From the IMG/VR virus record IMGVR_UViG_3300017991_000064, positions 42,875-106,874 of that record: 64,000 nucleotides of DNA. One strand, 5' to 3'. A model generated the notes under the pieces. It did not search any database. It was not told where the DNA came from and was given only the letters and a program-made list of their open reading frames with translations. This stretch comes from a virus. Positions within the stretch are counted from its first letter, which is position 1. Every line of letters begins with the position of its first letter. Made by a program: the position numbers and the translations under genes. Below are positions 3,696-57,036 of this stretch, one piece after another.

Positions 3696-5312
3696 ATGAA
3701 GCTATTGAGTTTGAAGATAAAGAATCTGAAATCAATTTCAACCCTCTCAATGAAATTGAAAGATGGTGTGACATTGATTGTAGGTGACAACAAGATAGGG
3801 AAGACATCAATTTTTCAGGCTATAATGTTTGCAATCTATGGTGGTGTGAAGAAAAATCTCATTCGTCATGATCAAAAGCTCTGTGAATTAATGCTAGAGT
3901 TTGAACATGACCACCATCACTACAAGATTCAACGAACATTCTACAACCGGAAAAAATCATCTGATGCTTCCTTATGGATCGATTCAATGGATGAGCCCTA
4001 TTCATCCAGTACGAAAGTAATCAATGGTCTCGCTAAACAAAGATTCCACTTCTTCAAACTCTTTGGCTTTATCTACTATACTAAGGTTAACACCTGGTTA
4101 GTAGAACAGAAAATGAAAAAAGATCAATTTCTTTTAGAACTCTTTGACCTGGACTGTATCAGTCAATTTGTTAAAGAGGGAGAATCCCACATACGGAAGT
4201 TCAGAAAAGATATTCCAGAGTGGTACTTTGAATTTGATCCTGAAGAAAAACGAATTGAACTAGATGAGGCAAAAGAAAAGAGAGAAAAGTATACTGTGGC
4301 TCTAAACAAACTAGATCAGAAAATCAGTACACTAGATAAACTTCAGGCTAAGATTAAGTTCTATCGAAAACAAACTGAAGGGAAAGAAGTTGTAAAACCT
4401 GAAATGATCGAGGAGCTAGAAAATAAGTTGGAAGATGTCCAAAAAGAAATTGGCGCTATCAATCACCTAATGAAAGCCAAGAGTAAGATTCTGAATTTCA
4501 CAAAATCCTATGACTCAGAGAACACCTGTCCACTTTGTCACTCAACAGTAAACCTAAAGAAGGTAGCAAAAGCAATTAAACAAGATCTGGCACAGTTAGA
4601 GGAGAAGGAGGAAGAATGGGAAAAGGTCAATGATCAAATTAATGAAGCTCTCAAGAAAATGATCACAAGGGATGACCTACCAGAAATTACGAAAACACAA
4701 CTTAAAAAGAACCTTGATACCCTTCCTCTTCGTCAAAAAAGATCCAAGCTCCGCGAAAGAATGAGTCCCAACTCTGCCATAATTAGTTCTATAAAGGACG
4801 AGTTATATGCCCACAGAAAGATTCAACGTCGGATAGAGGAGTCTAACATCAATGAGCTTGAAACCTCGGTGCAATCGCTATCAAGTACCATCAAGGTAAT
4901 TAATGATACAATGAAAGCCAACCTCGTTAATATGATGAACGAATTCATGTTGGTAGCATATGAGGGTAATAGCTCTATACATCTTATTGATGGTCAACTC
5001 TATTTAGAAAACAGCAGAGGAGAGAAGATTGAGTTTGATGAGATGAGTGGAGCCAATAGCGAGATAGAAATTGTAATCTTTATCTTTGCTACATCACTGA
5101 ACATTATTACAGGAAACAGAGTACTTATAATGGATGAGCTCTTTAATACCCTAGATAAGAAAACTTTTCCTAGAGCGGTGAACCTCATCCAGTATGTTAC
5201 CAAAAAGTACTTAACTCAACTCTTCATTATCTCACATCGCAATGATTTTGAATATGACCATCTATTCACCAAATCAAAGAAAAGAGATAAGTGGGGATAT
5301 ATTTCTAACTAA
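3696..5312 (+). CDS. Rad50/SbcC/T4 gp46-like SMC ATPase
   Basis: Walker A GDNKIGKTS, coiled coils around a CPLC zinc hook, degenerate signature MSGANSE, Walker B LIMDE, D-loop LD, H-loop IISH. Confidence 0.9.
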   Translation: MKLLSLKIKNLKSISTLSMKLKDGVTLIVGDNKIGKTSIFQAIMFAIYGGVKKNLIRHDQKLCELMLEFEHDHHHYKIQRTFYNRKKSSDASLWIDSMDEPYSSSTKVINGLAKQRFHFFKLFGFIYYTKVNTWLVEQKMKKDQFLLELFDLDCISQFVKEGESHIRKFRKDIPEWYFEFDPEEKRIELDEAKEKREKYTVALNKLDQKISTLDKLQAKIKFYRKQTEGKEVVKPEMIEELENKLEDVQKEIGAINHLMKAKSKILNFTKSYDSENTCPLCHSTVNLKKVAKAIKQDLAQLEEKEEEWEKVNDQINEALKKMITRDDLPEITKTQLKKNLDTLPLRQKRSKLRERMSPNSAIISSIKDELYAHRKIQRRIEESNINELETSVQSLSSTIKVINDTMKANLVNMMNEFMLVAYEGNSSIHLIDGQLYLENSRGEKIEFDEMSGANSEIEIVIFIFATSLNIITGNRVLIMDELFNTLDKKTFPRAVNLIQYVTKKYLTQLFIISHRNDFEYDHLFTKSKKRDKWGYISN

Positions 5313-5395
5313 ATCATAGGTGCCAGGATGAAAATTTGGTACCGCTATTGAATTTGTTTACCATTATAGTAGAATCCCAAAAGGTTAAATCTCCA
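5312..5395 (+). repeat. dispersed ~75 bp intergenic element, copy 1
   Basis: 5312-5352 is identical (41/41) to the reverse complement of 44753-44793; 5320-5393 aligns colinearly with 56963-57036. Confidence 0.9.
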
Positions 5396-5421
5396 CGAAA
5401 ACTTTTATAAGGAATGATAAC

Positions 5422-7311
5422 ATGTATATAATCAAGAGTAAGAAGGGTTACCAAAGATTGGTCCCTAATGTAGAAATTGAAGAATACTTCTCGGAAGATT
5501 ATTTCATAGGTAGAAGTACCAAACAAGGGAAACATATATTTCCTGTTTGGCGAAAAGCTTTGAAAACTATCTTCAGTAAAAAGCGTGGTAAAGACCTCAT
5601 TGAGGTTATTGCTACTGGAGCTATTGGTTCGGGGAAGTCCACTCTAGCTATAATAGGATCATCTTTCATACTCTACAAACTTTTATTATTAGAAGATCCA
5701 CATGATACCTTTGATATGATCAGAGGTCAACCTATCTTCTACCTATTCTTCAATGTAACAATGGATGCCAGTGAAGAAGGAAACATTCTGGCCCTAGGGA
5801 ACCTTATACATGAAGCTCCTGTTTTTAGGGATCTAGGGGTTAGGTTTTCGAAGAATACGAAATACCCAAAACCCATCTTCCCTAAGAATATTCTACTAGC
5901 TCCCGGTTCTATGTTTGCTAAAGGTTTCGGGGCTGTTGGTAAGAATGTCATTAGCGGAATGATGGATGAGGTGAATGAATCTGATACAGACAAGAAACAA
6001 AGAAAGGCTCTCTTCACACAGAAGCGGGCATTGAAAATGTATAAAGCTATCATACGGAGAATGAAATCAAGATTTTTTGATGACCCTGATCAACCCTTCC
6101 TTAGGTACATTAAGCTCTTTCTCATTTCATCCAGACAAGAGAAAGACAATTTCCTTGAGGATTATATCGAGAAGGTAAAAGATAAGAAACATGTTATCGT
6201 TTTTGATTTCCCAGTTTGGGTAGCAAGATCCAAAAAGAAACTATGTGGGGATACATTCCATGTAGCAGTTTCTCCATTCATGGATCCCATGATAGTAAAG
6301 AAGAAGAAAGAAATTCCTGATGTTGATGGAATCAAATCATATGAAATCCCTGTAGAGTATCTTCCAGCATTTGAACTAGATGCTCTATCCGCCCTTGCTG
6401 AGATAGCTGGTGTTAGTGTAAACAGGATGAGGACCAGATTCTTTAGAAATAGAAAACTCCTCAAGGCTTCTTTCACAGAACGTCCTATCAATAGAGATAT
6501 TCTAGAACTTTCTCTCTATGATGCAATTCAGGTAGCATCATGTTTTAATATTAAGGAACTGATGAAACTCCGTGGACAAGCTATGACAGTACATATTGAT
6601 GTTGGTTTGACTGGGGATAGATTGGGCATTGGTGCTGCTATGGTGGAATCATTCAAGCACCTAACTGTTTCTCCAGATGAGGAAGAGAAGTTAAGATTAC
6701 TAAAAACAACTCTAGATCAAGAAAGCGATAGTCCTGTGGATGAGAAGAAACCAAATGAAGTACATGTACCTATAGTTCTAGTTCCCTTTGCTCTAGGTAT
6801 TCAAGCTAAAGATGAGATTCCCCTATTTAAGATTCGTGACTTTCTCTTCTTCCTCCGTGATGATATTGGAATACACTTCATCGAGGTAACTACTGATGGT
6901 TATCAATCTCGTGACCTACGACAGTTGTTAACAGTAGCTAATATTCCAAACAGAGAGTTATCCGTGGATAGAACGATGTCACATCATACAATCTACAGGA
7001 CATGGGTCTATATGGGATTAGTAAAGAAAGTGAAGAATAGAATGCTATGGAAGGAGGAAAAAGAGTTACTAGAGTTGATGACAGATGCAAAGATTGATCA
7101 TCCCGATGGAGGCAGTAAGGACCTTTCTGATGGAGTAACTGGAGCTGTAGCAAATCTTTTAATACAGAAACAGAGTAGAATGAACATGAGTCCACAGGCT
7201 AGGAAGGATCTCTACAGAATGATGCTAAACCAAGGAAGGTCAAAGACCACAGGATTGATGGATATGATGAGGCCCAAAAGGGGTGGTAACCCATTAAACT
7301 ATAAAAAATAA
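5422..7311 (+). CDS. terL: terminase large subunit
   Basis: Walker A GAIGSGKST, Walker B GMMDEVNE, coupling motif ISS, RNase H-like nuclease HIDVG...TTDGYQS...KIDHPDGGSKDLSDGV. Confidence 0.9.
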   Translation: MYIIKSKKGYQRLVPNVEIEEYFSEDYFIGRSTKQGKHIFPVWRKALKTIFSKKRGKDLIEVIATGAIGSGKSTLAIIGSSFILYKLLLLEDPHDTFDMIRGQPIFYLFFNVTMDASEEGNILALGNLIHEAPVFRDLGVRFSKNTKYPKPIFPKNILLAPGSMFAKGFGAVGKNVISGMMDEVNESDTDKKQRKALFTQKRALKMYKAIIRRMKSRFFDDPDQPFLRYIKLFLISSRQEKDNFLEDYIEKVKDKKHVIVFDFPVWVARSKKKLCGDTFHVAVSPFMDPMIVKKKKEIPDVDGIKSYEIPVEYLPAFELDALSALAEIAGVSVNRMRTRFFRNRKLLKASFTERPINRDILELSLYDAIQVASCFNIKELMKLRGQAMTVHIDVGLTGDRLGIGAAMVESFKHLTVSPDEEEKLRLLKTTLDQESDSPVDEKKPNEVHVPIVLVPFALGIQAKDEIPLFKIRDFLFFLRDDIGIHFIEVTTDGYQSRDLRQLLTVANIPNRELSVDRTMSHHTIYRTWVYMGLVKKVKNRMLWKEEKELLELMTDAKIDHPDGGSKDLSDGVTGAVANLLIQKQSRMNMSPQARKDLYRMMLNQGRSKTTGLMDMMRPKRGGNPLNYKK

Positions 7312-7324
7312 CAGGAGGAACACT

Positions 7325-7759
7325 ATGGATGACATGACTAAGGTAAAGGAACCCAAAGACATTAATGACACAGAGAACACAGATGATCTTCTCACAAAGG
7401 AAGACCTAGCTAAGGAATGTAATGAGGAACTCTGGGCACTGAAACTGGTGACTGGGGAAGAAGTTCTAGCCAAGGGGTACTGGAAGGTACCTAAGGAAGG
7501 GCTCAATTCAATCTTCATTATTACGGGATCAATGGTAAGGTTGATGGCTAACCCAGTCTTGGTCAGAGGAAACCTAGCTTTTCAAAAGACTTATGTACCG
7601 TGGGTACACGAAGCTCACACGCAGGAGATTAATTCCTGGTTCGTAATCTCTTCCAACAATCAAGTTTCTAAGAAGGCCACTGAACAGTTCTACAAAACTA
7701 CAACCGGTCTCAGTATTCATGGTACCAATGAGATTCCATCCAATGGGGGTCACCAATGA
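7325..7759 (+). CDS. Sm-like (KLxxGEE) protein of T4-like phages
   Basis: ALKLVTGEEVLAK...LMANP...YVPW pattern; AGGAGG SD. Confidence 0.5.
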   Translation: MDDMTKVKEPKDINDTENTDDLLTKEDLAKECNEELWALKLVTGEEVLAKGYWKVPKEGLNSIFIITGSMVRLMANPVLVRGNLAFQKTYVPWVHEAHTQEINSWFVISSNNQVSKKATEQFYKTTTGLSIHGTNEIPSNGGHQ

Positions 7760-8214
7760 GAAAGTTTACTTACTTTTTGCTGCTCATTTTCTTTTTATTA
7801 GTTGGCCAGAGTTTCAGAGTAAAGGCTGAGGTTTTTGTAGTAACCAAAGTGAAGTACCCTGAGAAACCACATAGAACGTATTACCTCCGTTCAGTTACTA
7901 AGCCAATCCATAAACTCTCTATGGTTCAGAAGGATATTAAAGGCCTGTATCTGGAGATGAATGATCAGATTGAGGTAGTTTTAAGTTTTGAGAAACCTGG
8001 TGATACAGAAATCTTCGTATATCTGAGAGTTGAAACGATGGGGGAGAAGAGAACACCGGCTGGAGACCAGAGAACTGTTTACGGGTGTACATTTATCAAT
8101 GGGGCAAGTTTTGGAGGCTCGGGTAAATTTGATGGTGGATTCTTCAATAAAACATTAAAACTGGGTGATAGGTTCTACTTATCCCTACGCAAAGTTTCAG
8201 AGGAGGATAGCTGA
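7756..8214 (+). CDS. putative secreted/periplasmic beta-rich protein
   Basis: N-terminus MRK + hydrophobic FTYFLLLIFFLLV + VKA cleavage-like site. Confidence 0.55.
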   Translation: MRKFTYFLLLIFFLLVGQSFRVKAEVFVVTKVKYPEKPHRTYYLRSVTKPIHKLSMVQKDIKGLYLEMNDQIEVVLSFEKPGDTEIFVYLRVETMGEKRTPAGDQRTVYGCTFINGASFGGSGKFDGGFFNKTLKLGDRFYLSLRKVSEEDS

Positions 8215-8216
8215 TC

Positions 8217-8894
8217 ATGTACGAAAATATAGAAATGATTCCGCAAGATGTCAGGATCATCGAACAGCCCGTACTAAAGAATATCAGAAACTCGGAGTTT
8301 GTAGCTAGGTTATCACACCGCTCGGAAGAAAGAATCTCCGACGATTCTTACGTGGCTCTCATGGATAAAATGACACGTTTGAACCACCAGGCAGCCTTTG
8401 AGTTCATGGATATGACCGTAATGTTTACTACGAACCGTGGAGTATCCCATGAACTTGTCCGACATCGCCTATGTTCCTTCCTGCAAGAGAGTACGAGATA
8501 CATCAATTTCGACAAGAAGATGAAGGGTAAGATTCCTATTATCCGCGGGGATTACCCAATGTATATGTTAAAGATTCTGGATGACATAGCATATACATAC
8601 AAGAAGATGGTTAACGAAGGTATCCCACCACAGAAAGCAAGAGATATCCTACCAATGTCATTGGCTACCAGGATAGCTGTTAAAACCAATCTTAGAGAAT
8701 GGGCATATTTATTCCACATGAGATTATTCAACAAGAAAGCTCATCCTCAGTTTAGAGAGTTGATGTCAATGCTATTGAATAAGCTAGTAAACAAACCAGC
8801 CTGGTATCCGGTAGTAAACTGCCTACTTCAGAATACCTATGGATACACAGAAGAACAAATCGAAGATGCAAGGGGGGTCTGTCTCAATGAGTAA
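8217..8894 (+). CDS. thyX: FAD-dependent thymidylate synthase
   Basis: RGVSHELVRHRLCSFLQESTRY (RHRxxSxxQxSxR signature), ARDILP, NLREW, AHPQFR. Confidence 0.95.
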   Translation: MYENIEMIPQDVRIIEQPVLKNIRNSEFVARLSHRSEERISDDSYVALMDKMTRLNHQAAFEFMDMTVMFTTNRGVSHELVRHRLCSFLQESTRYINFDKKMKGKIPIIRGDYPMYMLKILDDIAYTYKKMVNEGIPPQKARDILPMSLATRIAVKTNLREWAYLFHMRLFNKKAHPQFRELMSMLLNKLVNKPAWYPVVNCLLQNTYGYTEEQIEDARGVCLNE

Positions 8895-9723
8895 TGTCAC
8901 ATATGTATTCTATGAAAATGGTGTCAAGATGCTTGGGTCTACTAACAATGAATTTGATGTGGGATCAGATGCTATAAGAGATGAACTTCTCCAACGACTC
9001 CAATCAACAATCAGCCATGTTTCCGAGTTAGAATTCCAGGTGAAAGATCTTGAGGCCTCAAAGAACCAGGCCTACAAGGAAAGGAATTTAATGGTTCAAT
9101 TCCTCACCTTCATCTACCCATCATATCTTACTAAGCACCCCGAAGATGATCTTTCCTGGGAACAGGACTGGATGAACATTGTTGTGGTTGATGGTCCTGG
9201 TGGTCAAATGAGTTGGCACATCCATGATTCTGAAATGCTTCTCTTCTCCCATCTGGGGTACAGAGAGAATGATTGGGATGGGCATACCACGGAGGATAAG
9301 TACAAAAGGTTAGAGCATTGTTGCCGAGTAGAGATTCAGAGACCACTAATTGAGAATCCACCGATCGTTAAGTCTCAGGGTGATCGTGATAAAGTAGAAT
9401 TAGGTCTTTGTCTACAGATGATCGATAAAGATAACATCTTTAAGGCCATCGTTCAAGAGATATTCAAACAGAAAGCTGCAGAGAGGGGCTATGTTCTCCC
9501 CGATCAGGACTCTGATATTTCTATGATCAACGGCGAGCTAGAAGAGAAATTGGTTCTTATGGGATTCCAAACAAAGGTGGAAATGGCAGTTCATCGTATT
9601 CCCTACCCCTTTGATAAGAACAAGAAAACCAAGGTAGAGCATGTTGATGTGTCAGTCACTGAAGGAATTGATAAATTCATAGGTGCTATTAAAGGAGCTA
9701 AGGAGGAAAAGAAAGATGAATGA
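8887..9723 (+). CDS. WDGH-motif phage protein with an extra C-terminal domain
   Basis: YKERN..V..L, GQMSWHI and WDGHTTEDKYKRL motifs. Start placed at ATG 8887 (GGGGG SD, overlaps the thyX stop) rather than 8839. Confidence 0.6.
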   Translation: MSNVTYVFYENGVKMLGSTNNEFDVGSDAIRDELLQRLQSTISHVSELEFQVKDLEASKNQAYKERNLMVQFLTFIYPSYLTKHPEDDLSWEQDWMNIVVVDGPGGQMSWHIHDSEMLLFSHLGYRENDWDGHTTEDKYKRLEHCCRVEIQRPLIENPPIVKSQGDRDKVELGLCLQMIDKDNIFKAIVQEIFKQKAAERGYVLPDQDSDISMINGELEEKLVLMGFQTKVEMAVHRIPYPFDKNKKTKVEHVDVSVTEGIDKFIGAIKGAKEEKKDE

Positions 9724-10723
9724 TACCCAACTCATTCAATTGGCGGAGGAAACATTCGGTGGTGCACTTGATGTTATGAAACGAAAGAATGCTGACTACA
9801 CAGCAGGTATGAAGGAGTATGATGCTCTTCTAAACTTTAAGTTGATTGCTTCATTGTTGAATATCTCTCCCTATAAGGTCTGGGGTGTTTATGCTATGAA
9901 GCATATGCTTGCGATCCTTAAGTTCACCAATACTGGTAGGGTAGAAAGTGAAGGTTTATTTGGAAGGGTTGATGACCAGATGAACTATGCCATTCTCCTC
10001 AAGGCACTGGCTACAGATGAGAAGAATGGTGTCAGAATGACCATTGATCTCGAAGAGTACTTCAGAATTCATATGGCAGAAAATGGGGTTCAGAACGATG
10101 ACATCATTGACGATGATGAACCAGAGATTGATCAAGAGTTTATCCAGACGAGATTAAATACAACTCTTGAAGCATTGAAGGAAAGTCTACAAAGGTCAGA
10201 CTCCATTCCTGTTGATGTAAAGAAAATGATCGAGAAAAAGATACAGAGTATGGAAGAGATGGTAACTACACCCTCCACGTCAGATGTGGAAGGAGTTAAG
10301 GTAGTTCCTCCACCTGAGGAGGATACGCTAGTTATTGTACCCATCTCGGATACCCTAGAGGCATTGCTAAAAAGGTATCAAATGGACAAGGAGTCTGTGG
10401 AGAAGACCATTATTCCAAACATCATTTCGATGTTCGAAAGGTTTCAGCAGAAGTTTGGTGATGGCAGAAAATGTATGACTAGAGTAGAAACGTTTAAGAA
10501 ACCCAATAACCTTGAGAAAAAGGTTAGATATTCTGCTTACGTGGTCTTGTACTTAAAACAGGATGAGCATCCTTCTGGAGTACAGATTGACAGAATGGGA
10601 TTCGGGGTTTATGACAGTATTCAAGATGTCACGGTCGCTGGAGAGATGGTGAGTATCGCATTAGAGCGGGTTCATAAAAAGTGTAAAATTGATATCGAAG
10701 TAGCCGAAGCTGTACAATTTTAA
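9716..10723 (+). CDS. DUF1599/nucleotide-modification-associated (MazG-like all-alpha) domain fused to an unknown C-terminal domain
   Basis: KRKNADY...NF...KH..AI...ESEGLFGRVDDQMNYAILL pattern; AGGAGG SD before ATG 9716. Confidence 0.6.
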   Translation: MNDTQLIQLAEETFGGALDVMKRKNADYTAGMKEYDALLNFKLIASLLNISPYKVWGVYAMKHMLAILKFTNTGRVESEGLFGRVDDQMNYAILLKALATDEKNGVRMTIDLEEYFRIHMAENGVQNDDIIDDDEPEIDQEFIQTRLNTTLEALKESLQRSDSIPVDVKKMIEKKIQSMEEMVTTPSTSDVEGVKVVPPPEEDTLVIVPISDTLEALLKRYQMDKESVEKTIIPNIISMFERFQQKFGDGRKCMTRVETFKKPNNLEKKVRYSAYVVLYLKQDEHPSGVQIDRMGFGVYDSIQDVTVAGEMVSIALERVHKKCKIDIEVAEAVQF

Positions 10724-10977
10724 TGAACATGAGTAGAATACCAGAAGCTTTATCTAATGTAATGATGTGGCTATCTGCCTTGAAGGTTAGAGGTCGGATT
10801 TTCTTCCACTGGACAACAAAAGGTAAGGACCTTGAATTCACCCTACGCATTCCAGCCAATGAAGCCATAGCAGTCCCCGCAAAGGAACTTGCTAATCTGA
10901 ACAAAGCACGGAGTGTTAGTGAGAAATTAAGGATCCTTAGACGTATTGCTCTTCTAGTCGAGAATAGAAGAAAATAG
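10723..10977 (+). CDS. small basic hypothetical protein
   Basis: 84 aa ORF coupled to the upstream stop (TAATG). Confidence 0.5.
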   Translation: MNMSRIPEALSNVMMWLSALKVRGRIFFHWTTKGKDLEFTLRIPANEAIAVPAKELANLNKARSVSEKLRILRRIALLVENRRK

Positions 10978-11005
10978 CCTTTTTATAGTATATAAGGAGG
11001 TTCTC

Positions 11006-11374
11006 ATGAGAATGTGGATGGTAGATCCAAAGATAATGTGTAGACAACATCTGTTGGGTGAGCATAGAGAGATGCATGCTCTACGAGGTATGATTATGAA
11101 AGGACTCAGTCTCGATGGCTATGTCCGTAATAATTGTCTTCAGTTTAGGGACATCAAGAAACGCCATGATCGAATTGTTGCTGAAATGATTCGTCGTGGT
11201 TATAATCACTATTCTCCACTCGAAGAAATTCCTGATATGGTCACGATAAAATATAGCTACTTCGTTCAGGAATCAAAGGTTGATGTTGAATCTTCACTAC
11301 AGGATCTACTCCAACGTTGTGTACGATGTTCTAAACGATTCAAAAAGTTAAGGAGGAATAATGGAGAACAATGA
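11006..11374 (+). CDS. pyrimidine-dimer DNA glycosylase / endonuclease V family (DenV-like)
   Basis: MRMW..DP..MCRQHLLGEHREMH and RHD..VAEM..RGYNH.SPL; AAGGAGG SD. Confidence 0.85.
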   Translation: MRMWMVDPKIMCRQHLLGEHREMHALRGMIMKGLSLDGYVRNNCLQFRDIKKRHDRIVAEMIRRGYNHYSPLEEIPDMVTIKYSYFVQESKVDVESSLQDLLQRCVRCSKRFKKLRRNNGEQ

Positions 11375-11675
11375 ACACCTACTGAACAGGAATTTTCACT
11401 TTCACAAAACAAAAGACAAGGAAGGGATTCCGATCATCATGATTATGTCAGTTGAAAATATGGAGGGGACCTTCAAGGGAATAGATCCCCCACTAGAACG
11501 AAATGCAGAATCTGATAAGATCGGAATCCCCAATCCCAAAACTGGAGAAACAGAGTGGATAGAATATTCTCCAGCACCAGACCTAGCACTGAAAGTCGTG
11601 GGGTATCTCACAGACAATGACATGAGAGCGCTAATGGAAGTAATCCCACGAGATATTCATCTCGAGTACATGTAG
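11361..11675 (+). CDS. hypothetical protein
   Basis: 104 aa, AGGAGG SD. Confidence 0.55.
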   Translation: MENNEHLLNRNFHFHKTKDKEGIPIIMIMSVENMEGTFKGIDPPLERNAESDKIGIPNPKTGETEWIEYSPAPDLALKVVGYLTDNDMRALMEVIPRDIHLEYM

Positions 11676-11683
11676 GAGGAATC

Positions 11684-12049
11684 ATGAACTTTATCCGGGT
11701 AGGTTTTCATTTCATGGTGGACAATGCGATCCCTATCCTTTACATTCTTCTTGCTCTCCATATCTTTCTAACTACCCGAAGAGTCTTTTACTTAGAGGGT
11801 AAGATTCGAGAGGTGGAAATTAACCTGGAAGATGTTAAGAGACAATTGGATTACTACGTTGTCTCCACCGCTGATTTCGAGAAGTTCAAGAGTGAAGTAT
11901 ATCTGATTGTGGACAACTTCTCAAGGTACCAGGAAATAACACGTAGAAGTAACGGAAAGTTGAGTCACCGGGGGTTAATGAATTTTCTCAAGAGTCAGCT
12001 CGAGATAGAAAGCTTACAGGCCAAATGTGAAGTTAGTGATGATGATTAG
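11684..12049 (+). CDS. membrane-anchored coiled-coil protein
   Basis: Hydrophobic IPILYILLALHIFL followed by a heptad-rich segment; last gene of the + strand block. Confidence 0.55.
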   Translation: MNFIRVGFHFMVDNAIPILYILLALHIFLTTRRVFYLEGKIREVEINLEDVKRQLDYYVVSTADFEKFKSEVYLIVDNFSRYQEITRRSNGKLSHRGLMNFLKSQLEIESLQAKCEVSDDD

Positions 12050-12486
12050 AATCTAAAGGTGAATGAAACACTCTTCTTTCCATATTCAGTTCCAAAGGGG
12101 CTTACGACATTCCCAAGTTGTAAGCCTTCTTTTTTGTGTAGTTTGGTTAGGATTCTGTTCTCAAGGTGTGATGTAATACGATCACTCATCTCCAAACTCA
12201 TTTCACGTCTCAATGATCTCTTCAGATATTTTCCAAAGGCACCTAATCCCCTTGTCTTCATTTCGTATCTATGGTTCGTAATATAATCACCCGTTGCACT
12301 ACACCAATGCTTTAACCTTTTGTACATTACAAGTTCGGTAGCAGTATAGTATTTAGTAGCTCCACTTTCATCTGCTCTCTTCATCGCTTTTGTCGCTACT
12401 CTTATGAATTGTGTAAATATCAGTAGTACAATTAGATTGAAGTAATTCACAAGTACATCATTTAATAGATCACCAATTAATTCCAT
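12046..12486 (-). CDS. hypothetical membrane-anchored basic protein
   Basis: N-terminal hydrophobic helix; G-rich SD; its stop overlaps the convergent gene. Confidence 0.5.
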   Translation of the reverse strand: MELIGDLLNDVLVNYFNLIVLLIFTQFIRVATKAMKRADESGATKYYTATELVMYKRLKHWCSATGDYITNHRYEMKTRGLGAFGKYLKRSLRREMSLEMSDRITSHLENRILTKLHKKEGLQLGNVVSPFGTEYGKKSVSFTFRF

Positions 12487-12498
12487 TCAAACCCCCCT

Positions 12499-12570
12499 TG
12501 CCAGAATGACAAAACAGTACCAAGATTTCATTTGTTAGGTTTACCAGTGGAAATCCTTAACTTAAATCTC
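12499..12570 (+). repeat. dispersed ~75 bp intergenic element, copy 2 (diverged)
   Basis: TGCCAGAATGA...GTACC...ATTTGTT...AGTGGAAATCC...TTAAATCTC is colinear with copy 1, and shares CAGTGGAAATCCTTAACTTAAA exactly with copy 3. Confidence 0.75.
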
Positions 12571-12757
12571 AACGACCCATATAGGGAAAAATTTGACCCT
12601 TTATTTTATCCCCTTTTCTCCTTCTCTTTAATTTCCTGGTGGTCATCCACATTGAGATCATTTGAATTACTACCATCGCTGAGACAAGAATGGTTCCACC
12701 CATAAGAATGTAAGCAATGGTTTTGAGACTCCATTCGAGTTCAATTATTGTCATCAT
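12569..12757 (-). CDS. small single-TM protein with a basic C-terminal tail
   Basis: TM segment IAYILMGGTILVSAMVVIQMI followed by RKLKRRRK; AGGAGG SD supports a start at 12757/12754. Confidence 0.5.
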   Translation of the reverse strand: MMTIIELEWSLKTIAYILMGGTILVSAMVVIQMISMWMTTRKLKRRRKGDKIKGQIFPYMGR

Positions 12758-12774
12758 ACCTCCTATCAACGGAA

Positions 12775-12802
12775 ATGGGATAGAGAATGAACTCTATCCC
12801 AT
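12775..12802 (-). terminator. hairpin downstream of the holin-like gene
   Basis: Perfect 11 bp inverted repeat ATGGGATAGAG-N6-CTCTATCCCAT; weak U tail. Confidence 0.55.
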
Positions 12803-12842
12803 AACCATGCTCCAAAATATCGTAACGTATGTACGACCTGAA

Positions 12843-13316
12843 TCAGTTACCGATGTTGTTCACCTTGAACACATTCTGTTCCACTAGATGCTCAATGTAT
12901 GCACCGGTATCACCCATGAACTTATCAAGGAGATCCATCTTTTCCTTACCAAGAATTCTCTTGGCCTCGCTGATAACATTCTGTTTGATGACCTTCTTCT
13001 CTGCATCGGTTACCTTAGCACCACCATCGCTATCAGGTGCCTGGGCTTTCTTGTACTCCTTAACCAATGTTTGTTCTGCTGACATGACCAAAGTTTCGAT
13101 TAGTTCAGCCAGGTCCAGCTTGGTTTCGTAGTACTGTATCTTCTCACCCTGTGCCTCTGCGGCAGCTTTCTTCGCTTCCATATCTTTCTCATAGGTATCA
13201 ACGTATTTCTTCACCTTTGAGGAGATCATGGGAAGAAGAACAATAATAGCTGTTTTGATCAACCAGTTCAGTACGAGACTAACGGCCTCTGATGATAGCC
13301 ATTCCATTGTGTTCAC
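12843..13316 (-). CDS. holin-like protein (LL-H type architecture)
   Basis: One N-terminal TM helix and a LVMSAEQ...EKK...IE.LVE..V pattern; close to the endolysin. The true start is probably ATG 13307. Confidence 0.6.
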   Translation of the reverse strand: MNTMEWLSSEAVSLVLNWLIKTAIIVLLPMISSKVKKYVDTYEKDMEAKKAAAEAQGEKIQYYETKLDLAELIETLVMSAEQTLVKEYKKAQAPDSDGGAKVTDAEKKVIKQNVISEAKRILGKEKMDLLDKFMGDTGAYIEHLVEQNVFKVNNIGN

Positions 13317-13362
13317 CTCCGTTTATGTATGTAATCTAATGGTTTACTTATGATTCCTTGTG

Positions 13363-13587
13363 TCACCTCCGTCCCATGTAATATTTGCATCTAATGCATC
13401 TTCCTTTCTGTTTATCCTTTAACCCTTTCCTAAAGTTCCATTTGCCACAATTGTTGCATTTCCGCATGGTAGCTCTTTTCTTAATGGCCCACTTCAAAGA
13501 ACTAAATGGCGCTTTCACAATTCCTACAACTAGATCCTTCGGACTAATGAAGATTCCATGCCCTCGTCTATTGTTAAGAAATTTCAT
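13363..13587 (-). CDS. small basic zinc-ribbon protein
   Basis: CNNC...CIRC motifs; coupled to the endolysin stop (ATGA overlap). Confidence 0.55.
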   Translation of the reverse strand: MKFLNNRRGHGIFISPKDLVVGIVKAPFSSLKWAIKKRATMRKCNNCGKWNFRKGLKDKQKGRCIRCKYYMGRR

Positions 13588-14637: not shown

Positions 14638-14701
14638 ATCACCCCCATGATAATGGTAATTTTTAATACCTACCGAATTTCTGGGGCGATAGGAATAGCG
14701 G

Positions 14702-16499: not shown

Positions 16500-16534
16500 T
16501 CTAGCTATCCTCCTTTTCTTTCGTCTGTAGTTGT

Positions 16535-16566
16535 AAAGGGGGGGGCCAGCCCATTAGACCGGCCCC
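16535..16566 (-). terminator. GC-rich hairpin after the 1545 aa fibre gene
   Basis: Minus strand GGGGCCGGTCT-AAT-GGGCTGGCCCC followed by CCCCTTT. Confidence 0.6.
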
Positions 16567-16581
16567 TGGTAATTCATTCCG

Positions 16582-40759: not shown

Positions 40760-40764
40760 TTATA

Positions 40765-41665: not shown

Positions 41666-41676
41666 CTACCTCCGCT

Positions 41677-44081: not shown

Positions 44082-44116
44082 TTTCTTTTACCTCCTTTAT
44101 TTTCCTGAAATCGTCA

Positions 44117-44653
44117 TCACGAATGCAGATAGATATCATACAGCCACGTGATACTCAGATCCACCTTAGCTGTCTTGTCTGCGTAGTCAAGGTTCGTATC
44201 TGGATTTGAGGACGGCTGAGCATTCTTCAGAGTGTAGGTCATGTAAGCCTCATCTGCATCACTAAGAGCCTGTAACAACCTTAGCTGAATGTCAACAACC
44301 CTATCTTCCTTGCGAACTGCTTCACCAGTTTCTGGATCAAAAGATAGATCGAGCCAGGATTCAATGATCTTCAGTACTGAACCATCTATAGTTTCAGTGA
44401 AATTACAAGTCCAGTTGTGTTCATAAGAGGGAGCACCAGTGTCTGTAATCTCAATTCCCATGTAGTTATCAATGATTGGTTCCATTGACCGTTTAGGAAT
44501 TGTAAGACTCCTGACCCTCAACCTAAGAACATCTGGAGCATTGGGAACAATACCTGCTATTGCAGATGGTAGCCGGGGAAAAGACAGTTCCCATAGGAAA
44601 CCTTTTGCTACCGTTCCAAGGCCCTGGACCAAAGAGAAAGGAACTCTTGGCAT
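44117..44653 (-). CDS. major tail tube protein (T4 gp19-like)
   Basis: WELSF...LRVRSLTIP...Y.G....G..SY...WT.NF.E..D...W...Y.L.NA.P...LDY pattern. Confidence 0.8.
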   Translation of the reverse strand: MPRVPFSLVQGLGTVAKGFLWELSFPRLPSAIAGIVPNAPDVLRLRVRSLTIPKRSMEPIIDNYMGIEITDTGAPSYEHNWTCNFTETIDGSVLKIIESWLDLSFDPETGEAVRKEDRVVDIQLRLLQALSDADEAYMTYTLKNAQPSSNPDTNLDYADKTAKVDLSITWLYDIYLHS

Positions 44654-44697
44654 GTTTGCTCCTCCTTTGTGAATTTAGGCGAAAGTAAATTTAATCG

Positions 44698-44712
44698 TAG
44701 AGATATCCAATG
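44698..44712 (-). promoter_or_regulatory. candidate late promoter/regulatory 15-mer upstream of the tail tube gene
   Basis: CATTGGATATCTCTA, 14/15 identical to the motif upstream of the capsid gene. Confidence 0.5.
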
Positions 44713-44752
44713 GGGTGTCACCCTTTGGTGACCTGTGGTGGGGTGTTAATTT

Positions 44753-44793
44753 TTCAATAGCGGTACCAAATTTTCATCCTGGCACCTATGATT
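44753..44793 (-). repeat. dispersed intergenic element, copy 4 (5' half)
   Basis: Exact 41 nt reverse-complement match to 5312-5352. Confidence 0.9.
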
Positions 44794-44802
44794 CAATGAT
44801 AT

Positions 44803-45459
44803 CTATGGTGCATCCCAATGAATTGTTTCATCGGTAACATGAAGTGCACCAAGATAAAGATCAACATTAATGTGTTTGATCTGCTTCCAAGCTTGAAGTT
44901 TTCTTATATATCCTTCCACCTCCATCGTTGTATTTATACCAAATCGATAACCTACATTGTATTCATCTCCTTCTCGATTAATATTAAGGTTATCAGCGTA
45001 GGTTAGCCAATAGAAGTACCAAAAGTCTGTGTACTCGGGATCCTGAATACAGAACTTATTCTGATCCTCCTGGTTGATATCATTCCCAGCAAACATGATC
45101 TCCAACATAAAATCATCCAGCATGGTCATATCATCAGAGAGTATGTTAAGGTCATACTCAACCAGTACTGGAAGTAATTTTACAGCAGGTGGGAGATCAC
45201 CTGGATCGTACACTGCTGTCAACTCTTCTAATGATGCACCTGAGTGAACCATTGGGAAATTGGCAGCTTCTGTCATCTTCCTAACACCAGTTTTTCTGAA
45301 CCAGAAGATAGGAAACTGTTTGTTATCATACTGAGCTAAAGCTTTTCTTAATGCTGTCTCACTCTCAGCATAAACAACCTTAGGTGGATTCCCACAAGTT
45401 CCAGGAACACGAATTGATTCGTATATCTGCCTAATTTCATTATTGATCAGTAGGAACAT
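44803..45459 (-). CDS. tail terminator / sheath stabiliser (T4 gp15-like)
   Basis: FP...F...G, P..VEYDLNI.S and VEGYI pattern; located upstream of the tube gene. Confidence 0.55.
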   Translation of the reverse strand: MFLLINNEIRQIYESIRVPGTCGNPPKVVYAESETALRKALAQYDNKQFPIFWFRKTGVRKMTEAANFPMVHSGASLEELTAVYDPGDLPPAVKLLPVLVEYDLNILSDDMTMLDDFMLEIMFAGNDINQEDQNKFCIQDPEYTDFWYFYWLTYADNLNINREGDEYNVGYRFGINTTMEVEGYIRKLQAWKQIKHINVDLYLGALHVTDETIHWDAP

Positions 45460-45880
45460 TACTTGCCTCCATACTAATCTTCTTTAGATAGTATTTATCA
45501 AGATCATCAGAGTCTGTTATGCTATCTCTGTATAGAGCCTCAGCTTCCTGCGAAGTACAACCATACCCACGATAAACGGGGATCATCTCGTTTGGAATAG
45601 AAGACCTGAACCATTCTCCAAGCTCTTCAAAGTAAGGAAAAAGAAGCACAACCTCTATATAGTTCTCCATCAACTTCTTCTGTGAAAATTTTCCATCATT
45701 CTCTTGTCTCTCTATAAACTTACCGTAGAACAATAAGAATTTACTGAAATCTATGTTGGGAAGAACCTTGAGTATGTTGTTTAGTTCATCTTCATCACCT
45801 AAGATATCCATGAGTTTTTGGCGTACATTATCATCAATCTTTGTAATGGTCATAATCTGTGGATACTGTTTTTCGCTCAT
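45440..45880 (-). CDS. hypothetical protein
   Basis: 146 aa ORF overlapping its neighbours in the operon. Confidence 0.5.
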   Translation of the reverse strand: MSEKQYPQIMTITKIDDNVRQKLMDILGDEDELNNILKVLPNIDFSKFLLFYGKFIERQENDGKFSQKKLMENYIEVVLLFPYFEELGEWFRSSIPNEMIPVYRGYGCTSQEAEALYRDSITDSDDLDKYYLKKISMEASNVPTDQ

Positions 45881-46998
45881 TTGAAGTTTCCTTGTATGGT
45901 TTCACCACCGGGATTCGAATCCATCATTACTTTCTCAAAAGCTTTCGATCGAGCTCCACTGTTATCAGCTTCCTCATTTATAGCATCCAGAAGATTAATC
46001 CTTCCAGGTTCTGTCTCCCTTGGTGGTTGTTCCTCGGTTTCTTCAATTTCATCACCTTCTGGTGCTTTGGGTTTTAGTGAACCCCAGGATGAGATTGGTT
46101 CGCTATCGTTCTCCAGGACCTCTCTACGTTTTGAAAGATATCCTGTGGAGGTGTATGATTCTTCAGGTCTTGACCGAGGAAGGCGGGTTAGAGTATCTCC
46201 CACTTCAGCATTTTCACCTATGAAACCTTGATGAACCACGTTTTCTAGGTTGAAGCTTTCGAGTATATCCTCATCTACAACATAGAAGTTTTTCTTAAAG
46301 ATAAGGTTAACAGCTCTGGGATCTGCTACCACGCGTTTGATGGTTTTTCTACCTACTCTCGTAAAGGAATCAACCCCATTACCCATAACCTTCGAACTGG
46401 TAGTTTCACCGGTAAAGAAAGGCTTTCCTGTCAGACTTCTACTGTTTGCAATGTAAGGATTGCTCTTAAAGAATTCGATCAGTTCCTTGAATAACCTTGA
46501 AGATATTCGCTTATTCCAATGGATACCTAGGTATGAATCCTCAGTGTGTTCCCACCATAGGCAATAAATTGTGGTCCCATACTCGAACTGTTGTTCAATG
46601 TTCATCTTGGCTGAAACGTCATTCCACTCATCGAAGTACTTTTTTCCCCGTTTATTGACTAACCTTCTCTGAACCTCGAATGTACCCCCATGATCAGGTT
46701 GAATACCATGAATCTGCATCTGGTAAGCATGTATCATTTCATGAGCCAGAATCATAACTAGAGTAGCTTCATCCTTGGCCGCTAGTTTGTTCACCACAAT
46801 TGCTTCAGAACCTGGTACTAAAGTATACCCCCCTTGGCCATCAGGTCTTGCAGAAGATCGATACGTTCCCCCACTTTTCCTTTTTGTACCTACTGAGGTT
46901 CTAAAAGTAATCTGTTCAATGTTTAGCGTACTATTGAATAGTTTCTGATTCAGCTCTCTTGCTAACTCTTTTAGTTTCCTACCGGTTATCTTAAACAT
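45877..46998 (-). CDS. SprT-like zinc metalloprotease
   Basis: LN..LFNS.L, ILAHEMIH (HExxH) and downstream HGGTF. Confidence 0.75.
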   Translation of the reverse strand: MFKITGRKLKELARELNQKLFNSTLNIEQITFRTSVGTKRKSGGTYRSSARPDGQGGYTLVPGSEAIVVNKLAAKDEATLVMILAHEMIHAYQMQIHGIQPDHGGTFEVQRRLVNKRGKKYFDEWNDVSAKMNIEQQFEYGTTIYCLWWEHTEDSYLGIHWNKRISSRLFKELIEFFKSNPYIANSRSLTGKPFFTGETTSSKVMGNGVDSFTRVGRKTIKRVVADPRAVNLIFKKNFYVVDEDILESFNLENVVHQGFIGENAEVGDTLTRLPRSRPEESYTSTGYLSKRREVLENDSEPISSWGSLKPKAPEGDEIEETEEQPPRETEPGRINLLDAINEEADNSGARSKAFEKVMMDSNPGGETIQGNFK

Positions 46999-48365: not shown

Positions 48366-49055
48366 TTACTTCATATCCTGGTAGTCAACGATGCGGGTAG
48401 CCAGGTCCATCTTGGTTCCATCTGTATCAAGTTTGAACTTCTTACACATGGACTGAAGTTGAGCAAGCTTGTTTTCCTTCATGAGTTGATGAATTCTCTC
48501 TTCGCGATCTTCCTCTTCATCTTCACCCTCTTCTGGGGCCTCTTCCTCTTCATCGTCACCTTCCTCATCTACCTCTTCGTCGTCATCCTCGGTTTCCTCA
48601 TCTACCTCTTCATCGTCATCCTTTTCAACTTCAGGAACCTCTTCCTCCTCTTCAATCTCGTTATCTTCATCATCCAGTTTAAGGATTTCGACGAAGAGTC
48701 CCTGCTGAGAGTAGAATTTCACTGAGATAGCATTGATGAGTTCTAGAACATCACCGGGGTTGAGATGATATTCATTGTGATCCTCAGTAATCACCAACAT
48801 CTCGTACTTGTTCCTGTTAGTGAGTTTTAGATTCTTCTTCAGAGCGTATTCTGAACAAGCAAGCTTGTTTTTGTAAAGATTCTGAAAACCTTCAACATGA
48901 CCTTCTGGAAGGGTGATGAGCTTCGAGCGTCTTGGGAGAAGCGTAAAGCTTAGGCCATTAAAATTCACATTCACTGAAACTTTTGTTACGTTTGTCACCT
49001 TCAGGTGTTTCTTATCCCTGAGTTTGAATTTGCTTATTGTATGTCTCTTTACCAT
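48366..49055 (-). CDS. acidic-linker protein with a C-terminal SAP/HeH DNA-binding domain
   Basis: Long D/E tract followed by KLAQLQSMCKKFKLDTDGTKMDLATRI (SAP consensus). Confidence 0.65.
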   Translation of the reverse strand: MVKRHTISKFKLRDKKHLKVTNVTKVSVNVNFNGLSFTLLPRRSKLITLPEGHVEGFQNLYKNKLACSEYALKKNLKLTNRNKYEMLVITEDHNEYHLNPGDVLELINAISVKFYSQQGLFVEILKLDDEDNEIEEEEEVPEVEKDDDEEVDEETEDDDEEVDEEGDDEEEEAPEEGEDEEEDREERIHQLMKENKLAQLQSMCKKFKLDTDGTKMDLATRIVDYQDMK

Positions 49056-49087
49056 TGAGATTTGCCTCCTTGGAAAAACATTGAGTG

Positions 49088-49120
49088 AAAATAGGGCCCC
49101 ATCAATGAAGACAGGGCCCC
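49088..49120 (-). terminator. terminator after the major capsid gene
   Basis: Minus strand GGGGCCCTGTC-TTCATT-GATGGGGCCCT followed by ATTTTC. Confidence 0.6.
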
Positions 49121-49145
49121 ATGTACAGTTAGACTATATTACCGA

Positions 49146-54239: not shown

Positions 54240-56951
54240 TTATTTACAAAAAATTGAATCTGCAATGCTACCAGAATTTTGGATGATGGAATCATTTGAT
54301 GTTCTTCGTCTAGAGTGAGTTCCAGCACCATTCATCCCTCTCTTCTCTGTTATAAAATCAACACGATTGTGTCGTAATCTCCTTGATCTTTTCCTAAGGT
54401 TCTCTTTCAATGAGGATCCCAACTTAACCTTCTTAATCACCATATTAAACTCTTTTATTTCTAACATATCCCCAATCTTCTCTAACCAAGAAACCATAGG
54501 CTCCATATCGATATATTTATTAACCCAATCCCACTTCCCAAATTTAAGGTCCCTATAAACTTTCCTTAGAACAGCATCATCATTCTCGTTGTAAAGAGCA
54601 TCAGATTCATCAAAATACCACGTACCTTTACGATAGATTGCTGTTCCAGAAATTAAAGTGGGATCTTCGTAATCATCATATGGTAAACCATCTTCTTCTG
54701 CAATACTACCCCAAATGTCCCTATGGAGTATATATGCCGGAAATACATATAAATTCTTTTTATTCCCATCAGCAACGAACCTTAGATACACGTCCTTTTG
54801 TAGCTTATATCCCCCAGCCTCAAACATTTCTTTTTTCGTAGGATTCTTAAATACCTCTGTATACCTACCTGTAACATCCCCCCCAAATGCAAATTCCTCA
54901 TGTACCCCTACCCGTAATGACTCTGAAGTAGTACTTGTATCATATACTCCCATTTTACTCCAAAAATCATTAAGAGAGTGATAGCCACTTCTCAGTAGGT
55001 AAGCCTCTAGACTATCCTCTTCCTTAGACGAGAGGGCATTGGGATTTAGTCCAATAGCTTCCTCAACTTTCTCTTCTATCTGATTTAGAAAATCCTCATA
55101 TTCCTTCGTAGCAAAATTATACGGATTATCTAAAAAGTCTTTCGGTAATCCGAAATCCTCAGGATTCATATCCTCATTACTCAGGAGAAAGTGTATTATG
55201 CTTACGGTCCTCCGTCGTATCACTTCCTCCTCTTTCTTAGTTTGATCTTCAGCTTTTCTTCGCCTCTCAATAAACTCTTTATGCATCAGATCCCTAATAT
55301 CCTCTGGGGGTCTATTAAACTCTGGGACCACTAACCCAAGAGGGGGGGATCTAACCTCATCATGCATGAGTTCGTCCTCAAACATTTCTGTAATGGCTAC
55401 CCCGTATTTGTCTGATATCCAATGCCAGTCGGTCTGAAGAAGTTTATTTAAGTGGCTTATCGGCCATTCAGCCTCCCACCCTACACCGGGCATCACCATT
55501 CTTTGGTTACTAAATTCAGACCTCCCCGGAATAATAATAAGAGCAATATGCTTAGGACTTGTTGGCTTGTATAGTATATCAAGATCCTTCTCGCTAATAT
55601 ACCCCTCCTCCTCAGCTACATGAGGCCAAACATCAGTATGGTTAGCAAGATCGCTATTGAAGATATAAAGATCTTTCTTACCACCCTTATTCCTAGCAAT
55701 CATCTTAGCCTCCCCATATTTGGCCGACTTGATGACATCCAGAAACTCTTTGCTTGAAGGGTTTTTGAAAACCTCCACAGTTTGATCCTTACCGCTAAAA
55801 TGGTGATTAAAACTAATTAGCCATTTCTCATTTAGTTTCTGTTCAGTAACCTGATCCATAACATTCGTTTTATGTTTAGGTTCTTTCCGTTTAGGTTGTC
55901 GGAACATAACTGTTGAACTCCCACTAGTTGTTGTTCTAGGTTTCTCTGATCTCGCTACAACGATACCATCCTTTCTAACAACAATAGAACCCAACCTATT
56001 GCTCTCAGGATGCAGATTAAAGTCTATCTCATAGTCATCACCTAATTGGAGATAACCGAAATTCTCTTTCTTAAATAGACTCCTTAATGTTTCAACGTCT
56101 TTTCTACGTGTTGCTGAAATGATCTGTTTTTGAATCTGTTCATCCTTCGGTTTTAGAAAAACCGTATCAGCAATACCCTTCTTATCAAACTCATACTGAA
56201 CAATCTTTCTAGCTTTGTCGTCATCCCATTCATCCATATCAAGATCAAACCAGGGAAGATCCTTTCCAAGAATAACAGAACTGAATAGGAACTTAGCGGG
56301 AGCAATCTTAATGTTCACATCCACTCCGTTATCCAGTAGATCAGACCAGGCATCCCCTATGGTTCTGAAATCCCAAACTGCTCCGGTTTTCTCATTCATA
56401 TCATAGTCTAGACCTACAAGATCAAAACCTCGAAGTAACCATTTCTCAAAATCTTTTCCCTTACGACCCGGATCAGCAAGTTCATTCATTTCCTGCTCAA
56501 TCACTAAATGATCATCGATAAACGCCCTTAGGTCCACGTAGAGTTGTAACCAATTCCACTCACCATCCAGATAAGGTTCCATCATCTTTGCTAACTCATC
56601 GTGGTCATCAAGAAGATCTCGCCAATTACTTATTTCAACAACCTTCCAGTGTCTAAGATTGGTTGGTTTAGCGATACCAGTAATCATCACTGCTGGATTA
56701 TAGAAAGTATCATCAAAATTCCGACCTTCCTCCTTACAGATAATTTTCCACATCTCGTTGTGAATCATATCAGTGGTAGCAATGAATACCTGCTTTGTGG
56801 GAAGATAAGCAATGAACCTTAGGCCCTCTTCTGTGGTCTTATAGGCCTCCATCCTCTCTTTATTATTAGGATTCACAAAGATCTCAGCGTATGGTCTAGT
56901 ACCCTGAGCCTCTACTCCTTGATAAAATTCCTCATTCAATTTTAATTTCAT
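54240..56951 (-). CDS. 903 aa multidomain probable internal head protein with three 'EVFKNP' repeats
   Basis: E(I/V)F(V/K)NP..KE...(R/K)(F/M)(I/V)A...(L/V)(Y/F).(F/A)....H..(M/V/I)W..(I/V)..E(E/D)G occurs three times, each preceded by a (L/V)xE(E/K) site. Confidence 0.6.
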   Translation of the reverse strand: MKLKLNEEFYQGVEAQGTRPYAEIFVNPNNKERMEAYKTTEEGLRFIAYLPTKQVFIATTDMIHNEMWKIICKEEGRNFDDTFYNPAVMITGIAKPTNLRHWKVVEISNWRDLLDDHDELAKMMEPYLDGEWNWLQLYVDLRAFIDDHLVIEQEMNELADPGRKGKDFEKWLLRGFDLVGLDYDMNEKTGAVWDFRTIGDAWSDLLDNGVDVNIKIAPAKFLFSSVILGKDLPWFDLDMDEWDDDKARKIVQYEFDKKGIADTVFLKPKDEQIQKQIISATRRKDVETLRSLFKKENFGYLQLGDDYEIDFNLHPESNRLGSIVVRKDGIVVARSEKPRTTTSGSSTVMFRQPKRKEPKHKTNVMDQVTEQKLNEKWLISFNHHFSGKDQTVEVFKNPSSKEFLDVIKSAKYGEAKMIARNKGGKKDLYIFNSDLANHTDVWPHVAEEEGYISEKDLDILYKPTSPKHIALIIIPGRSEFSNQRMVMPGVGWEAEWPISHLNKLLQTDWHWISDKYGVAITEMFEDELMHDEVRSPPLGLVVPEFNRPPEDIRDLMHKEFIERRRKAEDQTKKEEEVIRRRTVSIIHFLLSNEDMNPEDFGLPKDFLDNPYNFATKEYEDFLNQIEEKVEEAIGLNPNALSSKEEDSLEAYLLRSGYHSLNDFWSKMGVYDTSTTSESLRVGVHEEFAFGGDVTGRYTEVFKNPTKKEMFEAGGYKLQKDVYLRFVADGNKKNLYVFPAYILHRDIWGSIAEEDGLPYDDYEDPTLISGTAIYRKGTWYFDESDALYNENDDAVLRKVYRDLKFGKWDWVNKYIDMEPMVSWLEKIGDMLEIKEFNMVIKKVKLGSSLKENLRKRSRRLRHNRVDFITEKRGMNGAGTHSRRRTSNDSIIQNSGSIADSIFCK

Positions 56952-56962
56952 TTTATTCCCCT

Positions 56963-57036
56963 GTGCCAGGATGATTCTTTGGTACCCCTATTGAATTTGT
57001 TTGTCATCATAGTAGATTCCCTAAGGTTCAAATCTC
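56963..57036 (+). repeat. dispersed ~75 bp intergenic element, copy 5
   Basis: GTGCCAGGATGATTCTTTGGTACCCCTATTGAATTTGTTTGTCATCATAGTAGATTCCCTAAGGTTCAAATCTC; roughly 85% identical to copy 1 by eye. Confidence 0.9.

Follow-up and report, generated by a model that had tools for sequence, protein, structure and literature searches.

What is the sequence of about 85 bases (75-90 nucleotides [nt]) that recurs, in either orientation, between the genes of an uncultured tailed phage of 107 kb from sediment? The phage is represented by IMG/VR virus record IMGVR_UViG_3300017991_000064 (106,874 bp; record class, linear; completeness by CheckV, 100%), and the window analyzed here is the whole stretch of 64,000 nt formed by bases 42875-106874, i.e., the right 64 kb of that record. 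We find that the repeat is a real, lineage-private, DNA-level family without a match to anything known. Genome-wide it has seven members, six of them full copies and one partial, with five in the window and two outside it. It is neither a structured RNA nor an intrinsic terminator, nor does it form a general promoter class of the phage. Tentatively, and with a confidence short of even, we favor the reading that it is a composite DNA module, constrained in its spacing and recognized by a protein. The members are listed below, with window positions unless genome positions are named and with orientation relative to the transcription of the flanking genes:

5310-5398, + strand: c1, full copy, sense, between an SbcC-like gene (3696-5312) and an open reading frame (ORF) of 629 amino acids (5422-7311); its box 1, TGCCAGGATGA, starts at 5321, and its 3' box, AAATCTCCACGA, ends at 5398
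12489-12575, + strand: c2, full copy, antisense to the flanking - strand genes
34901-34985, - strand: c3, full copy, sense, between a baseplate-hub-like gene (34984-36207) and a gp25-like wedge gene (34539-34880)
44753-44794, - strand: c4, 5' half only, sense, upstream of the tail-tube gene (44117-44653)
44695-44752, - strand: the sequence after c4, 48 unrelated nt with the hairpin GGTCACC-AAAG-GGTGAC and then ATCTCTACGA
56955-57041, + strand: c5, full copy, antisense, between two paralogous - strand genes (54240-56951 and 57042-58085)
genome 9093-9189, - strand: the 9.1-kb copy, full, sense, outside the window
genome 26625-26723, - strand: the 26.7-kb copy, full, antisense, outside the window

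The five window copies had been claimed at these places by a first-pass annotation made from the sequence letters, and they are recovered by reading and alignment, by repeat pairing, by nhmmer, and by a pattern with fixed spacing. A repeat search independent of the reader pairs c1 with c5 (85 nt, 80%), c2 with c3 (82 nt, 71%), and c1 with c4 (54 nt, 89%). Run over the genome, an nhmmer profile of the window's four full copies recovers the half copy c4 (E 8e-7). The same genome-wide search, which the first-pass annotation had proposed as a check, adds the two copies outside the window (genome 26652-26714, - strand, E 4.5e-9; genome 9101-9182, - strand, E 3.6e-8), and a later six-copy profile finds no further copy in the genome below E 0.8. 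The pattern TGCYWGRATGA-N8-T-N7-TT-NN-ATTT-N12-AGTRG matches exactly the six full copies in the genome and nothing besides, so that the earlier claim of conserved blocks at fixed spacing holds, as does the remark that GTACC is missing in the third copy, where GTGGG stands instead. A degenerate copy suspected at 14650-14682 (- strand), on the other hand, is left out of the family because its score against c1 (21) is no better than the scores of unrelated intergenic gaps (19-22); it has no nhmmer match either. Whether the stretch after c4 (44695-44752) is part of the element is uncertain: ATCTCTACGA (about 44695-44704) bears a 10-nt likeness to the 3' box of the family, the best alignment of which has a P of 0.06-0.3 and is not significant alone. 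Box 1 on its own (TGCYWGRATGA) is also matched beyond the seven copies, at window 30682-30692 (+ strand; within a gene) and 6649-6659 (- strand) and at genome 19761-19771 (+ strand). These three sites compare with a chance expectation of ~0.4 by a uniform-base estimate and could be solitary binding sites or chance matches.

Over their first 60 nt, the six full copies can be aligned gap-free, and 21 of these 60 columns are invariant, falling into the blocks TGCnnGnATGA, T20, TT-NN-ATTT, AGTnG, and CC. Identity over this core is 57-68% in non-sister pairs and 85% between c1 and c5, and the 12 nt between ATTT and AGTRG are near-random in sequence and constant in length. The 3' part has indels of 1 nt and, in the 26.7-kb copy, of 11 nt, and ends in a looser block, AAATCTCnACGA. 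Across the core, ~90 substitutions are implied; at the indel-to-substitution ratios commonly reported, several indels would be expected there under neutral decay. Since the core is free of indels, its spacing is taken as constrained and would, by this comparison of copies, be under purifying selection.

The same features bear on the plainest alternative, namely, that the copies are functionless leftovers of old duplications, tolerated in intergenic DNA and occasionally homogenized by recombination. Such leftovers would account for the low copy number (seven), for the mosaicism described below as recombination between copies, and for our inability to assign a function. Yet the invariant blocks and the gap-free core speak for constraint, useless inserts of 85 bp should be lost from so tight a genome, and dispersed repeats are recombination hazards for a phage with SbcCD-like enzymes. 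We regard this explanation as improbable.

All seven copies are intergenic and lie between co-directional genes, where they fill nearly the whole gap between the stop codon upstream and the downstream ribosome-binding site. Given that only 6.1% of the phage genome is non-coding, the probability that seven of seven sites would be intergenic is ~3e-9. They are found at genome 9.2, 26.7, 48.2, 55.4, 77.9, 87.7, and 99.8 kb, and with the genome taken as a circle, the spacing between them (7.2-22.4 kb; coefficient of variation, 0.35) is more even than random. Compared with random positions, P is 0.0075, and compared with random picks among the 36 gaps of at least 60 bp, it is 0.006. The test is post hoc and presupposes that the genome is circular or circularly permuted; for these reasons the even spacing is a hint only. 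The strands of the copies in genome order read - - + + - - +, neighbors forming same-strand pairs, and gene direction along the genome is - at ~0.5-19.8 kb, + at ~20-54.9 kb, and - thereafter.

Four copies (c1, c3, c4, and the 9.1-kb copy) are sense to local transcription, and three (c2, c5, and the 26.7-kb copy) are antisense; the count of three sense (c1, c3, c4) to two antisense (c2, c5) given earlier for the window is thereby upheld and becomes 4:3 genome-wide. The closest relatives are opposed in this respect: c1 is sense and its 85% identical sister c5 antisense, and c2 is antisense and c3 sense. This argues that the conserved feature is independent of transcription direction and that the unit was placed or flipped independently of its neighbors. 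The copies are also mosaic. At its 5' end c3 equals c1 at 19 of 20 nt, and in its 3' half it equals c2 at 22 of 22 nt; c1 and c4 are identical over 41 consecutive nt (5312-5352 against 44793-44753) and then diverge. Both the 41-nt and the 22-nt identity had been noted in the first reading. The mosaicism implies that segments were exchanged between copies, and recombination between them has probably given rise to the chimeras.

The gap-free 60-nt core and the even spacing together lead us to favor a selected binding module. The core would be a composite recognition site for a predicted, most probably phage-encoded protein, and the site would work on double-stranded DNA, whatever the direction of the neighboring genes. 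Selection would maintain such a site in roughly one gap between genes for every 15 kb, and homologous recombination would swap segments between copies to yield the mosaics. A protein binding to the repeat would presumably act in a genome-level process, such as the initiation of replication or recombination or the organization of the DNA, rather than in the transcription of the adjacent gene. Several points weigh against this. We identified no binding protein; the only candidates for DNA binding, a sigma-70-family factor and a SAP-domain protein (48366-49055), have no link to the repeat. In a simple shuffle test the invariant columns are not significantly clustered (P 0.13), and the blocks lack symmetry and form no obvious iterons. 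Conserved blocks with rigid spacing would be equally expected of a transposase-binding end or of a promoter. Finally, the conservation is seen in a single genome without relatives only, and the spacing test, besides being post hoc, assumes circularity, whereas the record is classed as linear.

The first-pass annotation had proposed a DNA-level element, in the form of either a protein-binding module or a non-autonomous mobile unit. This proposal fits the data; its two versions are not separated by them, and the sister copies in opposite orientation and the mosaicism fit both alike. The mobile version would have a small, non-autonomous, selfish repeat without terminal inverted repeats, which a host-encoded or unrecognized enzyme copies into intergenic DNA in either orientation, the blocks being the sites of that enzyme. 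It is favored by the presence of both orientations, with closest relatives opposed, by the strictly intergenic position of the copies, as if insertions into genes were lethal, and by the limitation of the family to one lineage. The 41 identical nt of c1 and c4, set against ~60% identity in other pairs, point to recent copying or conversion, and c4 is partial or rearranged. However, the copy alignment contains no terminal inverted repeats or subterminal hairpins, and the aligned flanks show no target-site duplication specific to each copy; the AAATC-like words near both ends belong to the element and are not duplications because they are common to the copies. The 107-kb record has no match to HNH, GIY-YIG, TnpB/OrfB, or RVT_1 (reverse transcriptase), in a search that did not take up DDE, serine, and tyrosine recombinases one by one. 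The contigs of the source run include no empty-site or variant contig. A gap-free 60-nt core at 57-68% identity is unexpected for decaying dead copies, and even spacing is unexpected of random insertion, barring target immunity. On balance, we consider a mobile repeat doubtful.

If the repeat is instead read from its best-conserved block, box 1, a role in transcription can be considered. The repeat might be a promoter-plus-leader cassette of the promoter-early stem-loop (PeSL) kind, in which box 1 (TG-C-YWGRAT) is an extended -10-like element for the host polymerase or a phage sigma factor and the remainder is a transcribed 5' leader; we hold this to be unlikely. We give similarly little credence to the corresponding view of the two orientations, in which the sense copies drive the downstream gene and the antisense copies make antisense RNAs or are misplaced. 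The phage does encode a factor of the sigma-70 family, with both region 2 and region 4. Box 1 reads as TGn plus a hexamer; six of the seven copies have A at hexamer position 2, and AT stands at positions 5-6 in every copy. Its distance to the start codon is near-constant in the three full sense copies (101 nt in c1, 97 nt in c3, and 98 nt in the 9.1-kb copy), the half copy c4 keeps, upstream of the tail-tube gene, precisely the half that contains box 1, and c1 scores as TTGAAT-N16-TAGAAT in a scan for sigma-70 -35/-10 pairs. Yet c1 is the only copy to pass that scan, the same columns reading TGGAAA or TAGGAA in c2, c3, and the 9.1-kb copy, so that the pair is not conserved. Moreover, three of the seven copies are directed opposite to the flanking genes and have no plausible ORF downstream of them, and the motif is not found upstream of other late operons. 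In two antisense copies the geometry is of another kind: box 1 begins exactly 13 nt from an opposite-strand start codon, with a G-run ribosome-binding site between them. In c2 the T of TGCC is at 12499 and the ATG of the opposite-strand gene of 146 amino acids at 12486, the GGGGGG ribosome-binding site of that gene abutting box 1; in c5 the corresponding positions are 56964 and 56951.

Other kinds of signal were tried around the repeat and set aside. Aligned by eye, sigma-54, Bacteroidetes-type, and SPO1-type promoters and the NtcA site misfit at key positions or spacings. A putative promoter class, TGCCNN-N17-TAnnnT, has only one extra intergenic match, which is too near its start codon, and AACGAT is weak as a general upstream motif, with 9 of 70 sites intergenic against ~4 expected. 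Mini-ORFs from the invariant ATG run to 3-13 codons and yield no conserved peptide. GGTACC is not a special site, with 30 copies in the genome, and paralogous genes beside a copy occur around c5 only. Between those paralogues, the similarity is repeated: residues 1-146, 371-471, and 679-842 of the 903-amino-acid protein each resemble, by blastp, the N-terminal 167 residues of the 347-amino-acid protein.

Punctuation by hairpins likewise fails to describe the repeat. No terminator-like site is seen in any copy in scans of 5000-13500 and 34000-46000, and no stable stem-loop is found within the cassette, the sole hairpin near c4 being in the unique sequence that follows it. Elsewhere in the phage, the terminators are ordinary G/C hairpins in other gaps, and GGAGG ribosome-binding sites are also in use; the repeat is therefore not the standard punctuation of this phage. 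The earlier judgment that it is no simple promoter or terminator is borne out in that the sigma-70 pair occurs in c1 only, no copies precede the other late genes, and no helix is conserved. Intergenic G/C hairpins of the terminator type at window 16500-16581 (- strand) and 27149-27259 (- strand) have the loop word GGTCTAAT in common and may constitute a second small repeat family; another G/C hairpin is at window 49056-49145. At window 12097-12128 (+ strand), a strong terminator-like hairpin and its T run directly follow a + strand gene block and sit within the 3' part of the - strand ORF of 146 amino acids (12046-12486), the 3' end of which is somewhat doubtful for this reason.

Could the unit act as RNA? 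Its length of 75-90 nt, which is within the tRNA range, would suit a small-RNA gene family or a cis-acting RNA element such as a riboregulator, a processing site, or a tRNA-like decoy, and c5 contains a T-loop-like word, GGTTCAAATC. Two real tRNA genes do occur in the phage, both outside the window: one for Gln (anticodon TTG; L035:7983-8057, - strand) and one for Leu (anticodon TAG; L036:13332-13419, + strand). The structural evidence speaks against this reading. RNAalifold returns only a trivial stem of five pairs without covariation, and an all-column-pair test on both strands finds no helix (of at least 4 columns) longer than in column-shuffled alignments. The single-sequence fold z-scores range from -1.8 to +0.8 and are near zero save for c3 (about -1.6), which alone among the copies has a 12-bp internal stem. 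With the ends included, these analyses agree with the first-pass view that there is neither a conserved hairpin nor a terminal inverted repeat. The absence of a conserved helix on either strand argues against structure in RNA or in single-stranded DNA, and a cis-acting mRNA element cannot function in both orientations. Rfam 15 gives nothing at the gathering threshold over the whole window, and the Rfam match that was to have refuted the first-pass reading is accordingly missing; on c1 and c3 there are only chance C/D-box or microRNA matches (E 3-8). ARAGORN finds no tRNA in the window and, with lowered thresholds, produces only noise with respect to a tRNA origin of the repeat. An RNA function is very improbable.

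Searches for relatives place the family in this phage alone. The full spaced pattern has no match in the IMG/VR viral contigs, the JGI metagenomes, or 185,579 species genomes, and a looser pattern of boxes 1 and 4 has none in the viral contigs. A 3'-half pattern gives 24 viral-contig matches, all at chance level by nhmmer. A 5'-half pattern gives 12 metagenome and 8 genome matches, e.g., in metagenome-assembled genomes of Desulfobacterales, and these are judged to be chance because only the pattern itself matches, inside an apparently conserved coding stretch. The c1 copy has no blastn match among 50,697 phage records. The phage itself is, judging from its proteins, an orphan without a close relative: its gp25-like gene has no relative among the viral contigs, a search of 5.8 billion proteins gives a single homologue of its tail tube (48% identity), and the nearest relatives of its DNA polymerase are 26-30% identical. 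The stretch is present in one sequencing run only, from the probable source sediment sample, and no RNA run is listed as containing it. The contigs of that run have uniform depth and a break at c1, with no variant at c1 or c2; a joint from 5352 to 12545 among them is most simply a c3-type contig aligned to the 5' part of c1 and the 3' part of c2, i.e., a repeat artifact.

The gene content of the phage, with a gp25-like wedge, baseplate hub, tail tube, and tail sheath, marks it as myovirus-like. It further encodes ThyX and, at the left of the window, the following genes:

645-1664: SbcD/Mre11-like gene
1645-2388, + strand: sigma-70-family sigma factor gene (Pfam regions 2 and 4; PHROG 351)
3696-5312: SbcC/Rad50-like gene

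The sigma factor gene is positioned between the other two. Elsewhere, in the + strand early/replication block, the word AGCCTTTTAAT is common to three upstream regions, at genome 25.7, 37.7, and 41.6 kb (L036:5721-5842, L036:17705-17849, and L037:1599-1661), and is a candidate promoter or operator motif. Over the whole genome, GCGC (16 versus 185 expected), CGCG (19 versus 185 expected), and ACGT (122 versus 389 expected) are depleted, which suggests restriction avoidance; in the same count, CCGG is near expectation.

Private dispersed DNA words are common in large phages, and to our knowledge, the reader protein or function is known for almost none of them. The present repeat is unusual among such words in being long, asymmetric, free of structure, indifferent to the direction of transcription, rigid inside, and evenly spread. 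There is a minor chance that it constitutes a new genome-level signal of phages, an asymmetric, hairpin-less, multi-block site of ~60 bp, placed about every 15 kb in either orientation and read by a phage protein to start replication or recombination or to organize the DNA, or else the first miniature mobile element of phages lacking both terminal inverted repeats and hairpins. If a binding protein or an activity such as initiation, nicking, recombination, or transposition were found for it, the repeat would represent a new type of cis-acting site for phage biology, and that protein or activity would be a handle on how such genomes are organized or reshuffled. With one uncultured genome without relatives, the practical value is limited to that of a well-defined experimental target.

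Among known systems, the nearest in outward form are the PeSL cassettes of the T4-type phages RB49 and phi1, which recombine among themselves to give chimeric copies (Arbiol et al. 2010, PMC2839356). They combine a strong sigma-70 promoter with a G/C stem-loop terminator, are co-oriented with the gene that follows them, and number about 50 copies, a few of which are in core modules (PMC2839356). The repeat resembles them in size, in place, in recombination between copies, and in having a few copies in core modules. In contrast to them, it passes the sigma-70 scan in c1 only, has no conserved stem-loop, is antisense in three of seven copies, and is present in 7 rather than about 50 copies. It fails the defining features of PeSLs, namely, promoter, stem-loop, and co-orientation.

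A second group is that of miniature non-autonomous elements, of which the MPMEs of mycobacteriophages are an example. With miniature inverted-repeat transposable elements (MITEs; e.g., MITEAba12, PMC6382973), the repeat shares its small size, dispersal, both orientations, intergenic position, non-coding nature, and confinement to one lineage. It differs in having no terminal inverted repeats, target-site duplication, or hairpin potential, and no gene of the four families of mobilizing enzymes searched for was found in the record. It thus also fails the MITEs' defining features of terminal inverted repeats and target-site duplication.

The third comparison is with dispersed operator-type repeats, such as the stoperators of Cluster A mycobacteriophages. 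Cluster O mycobacteriophages have a dispersed 17-bp dyad repeat of this type (PMC4351075). Like these, the repeat is private to its phage, spread genome-wide, largely in short intergenic regions, and presumed to bind protein; and just as the Cluster O and Cluster A genomes have been reshaped by recombination between repeat copies, the copies here probably recombine as well. The sites of those clusters, in contrast, measure 13-17 bp, are either symmetric or asymmetric and oriented to transcription, and occur in 24-35 copies, whereas the unit described here is one of ~85 bp, asymmetric and built of multiple blocks, with seven copies in both orientations.

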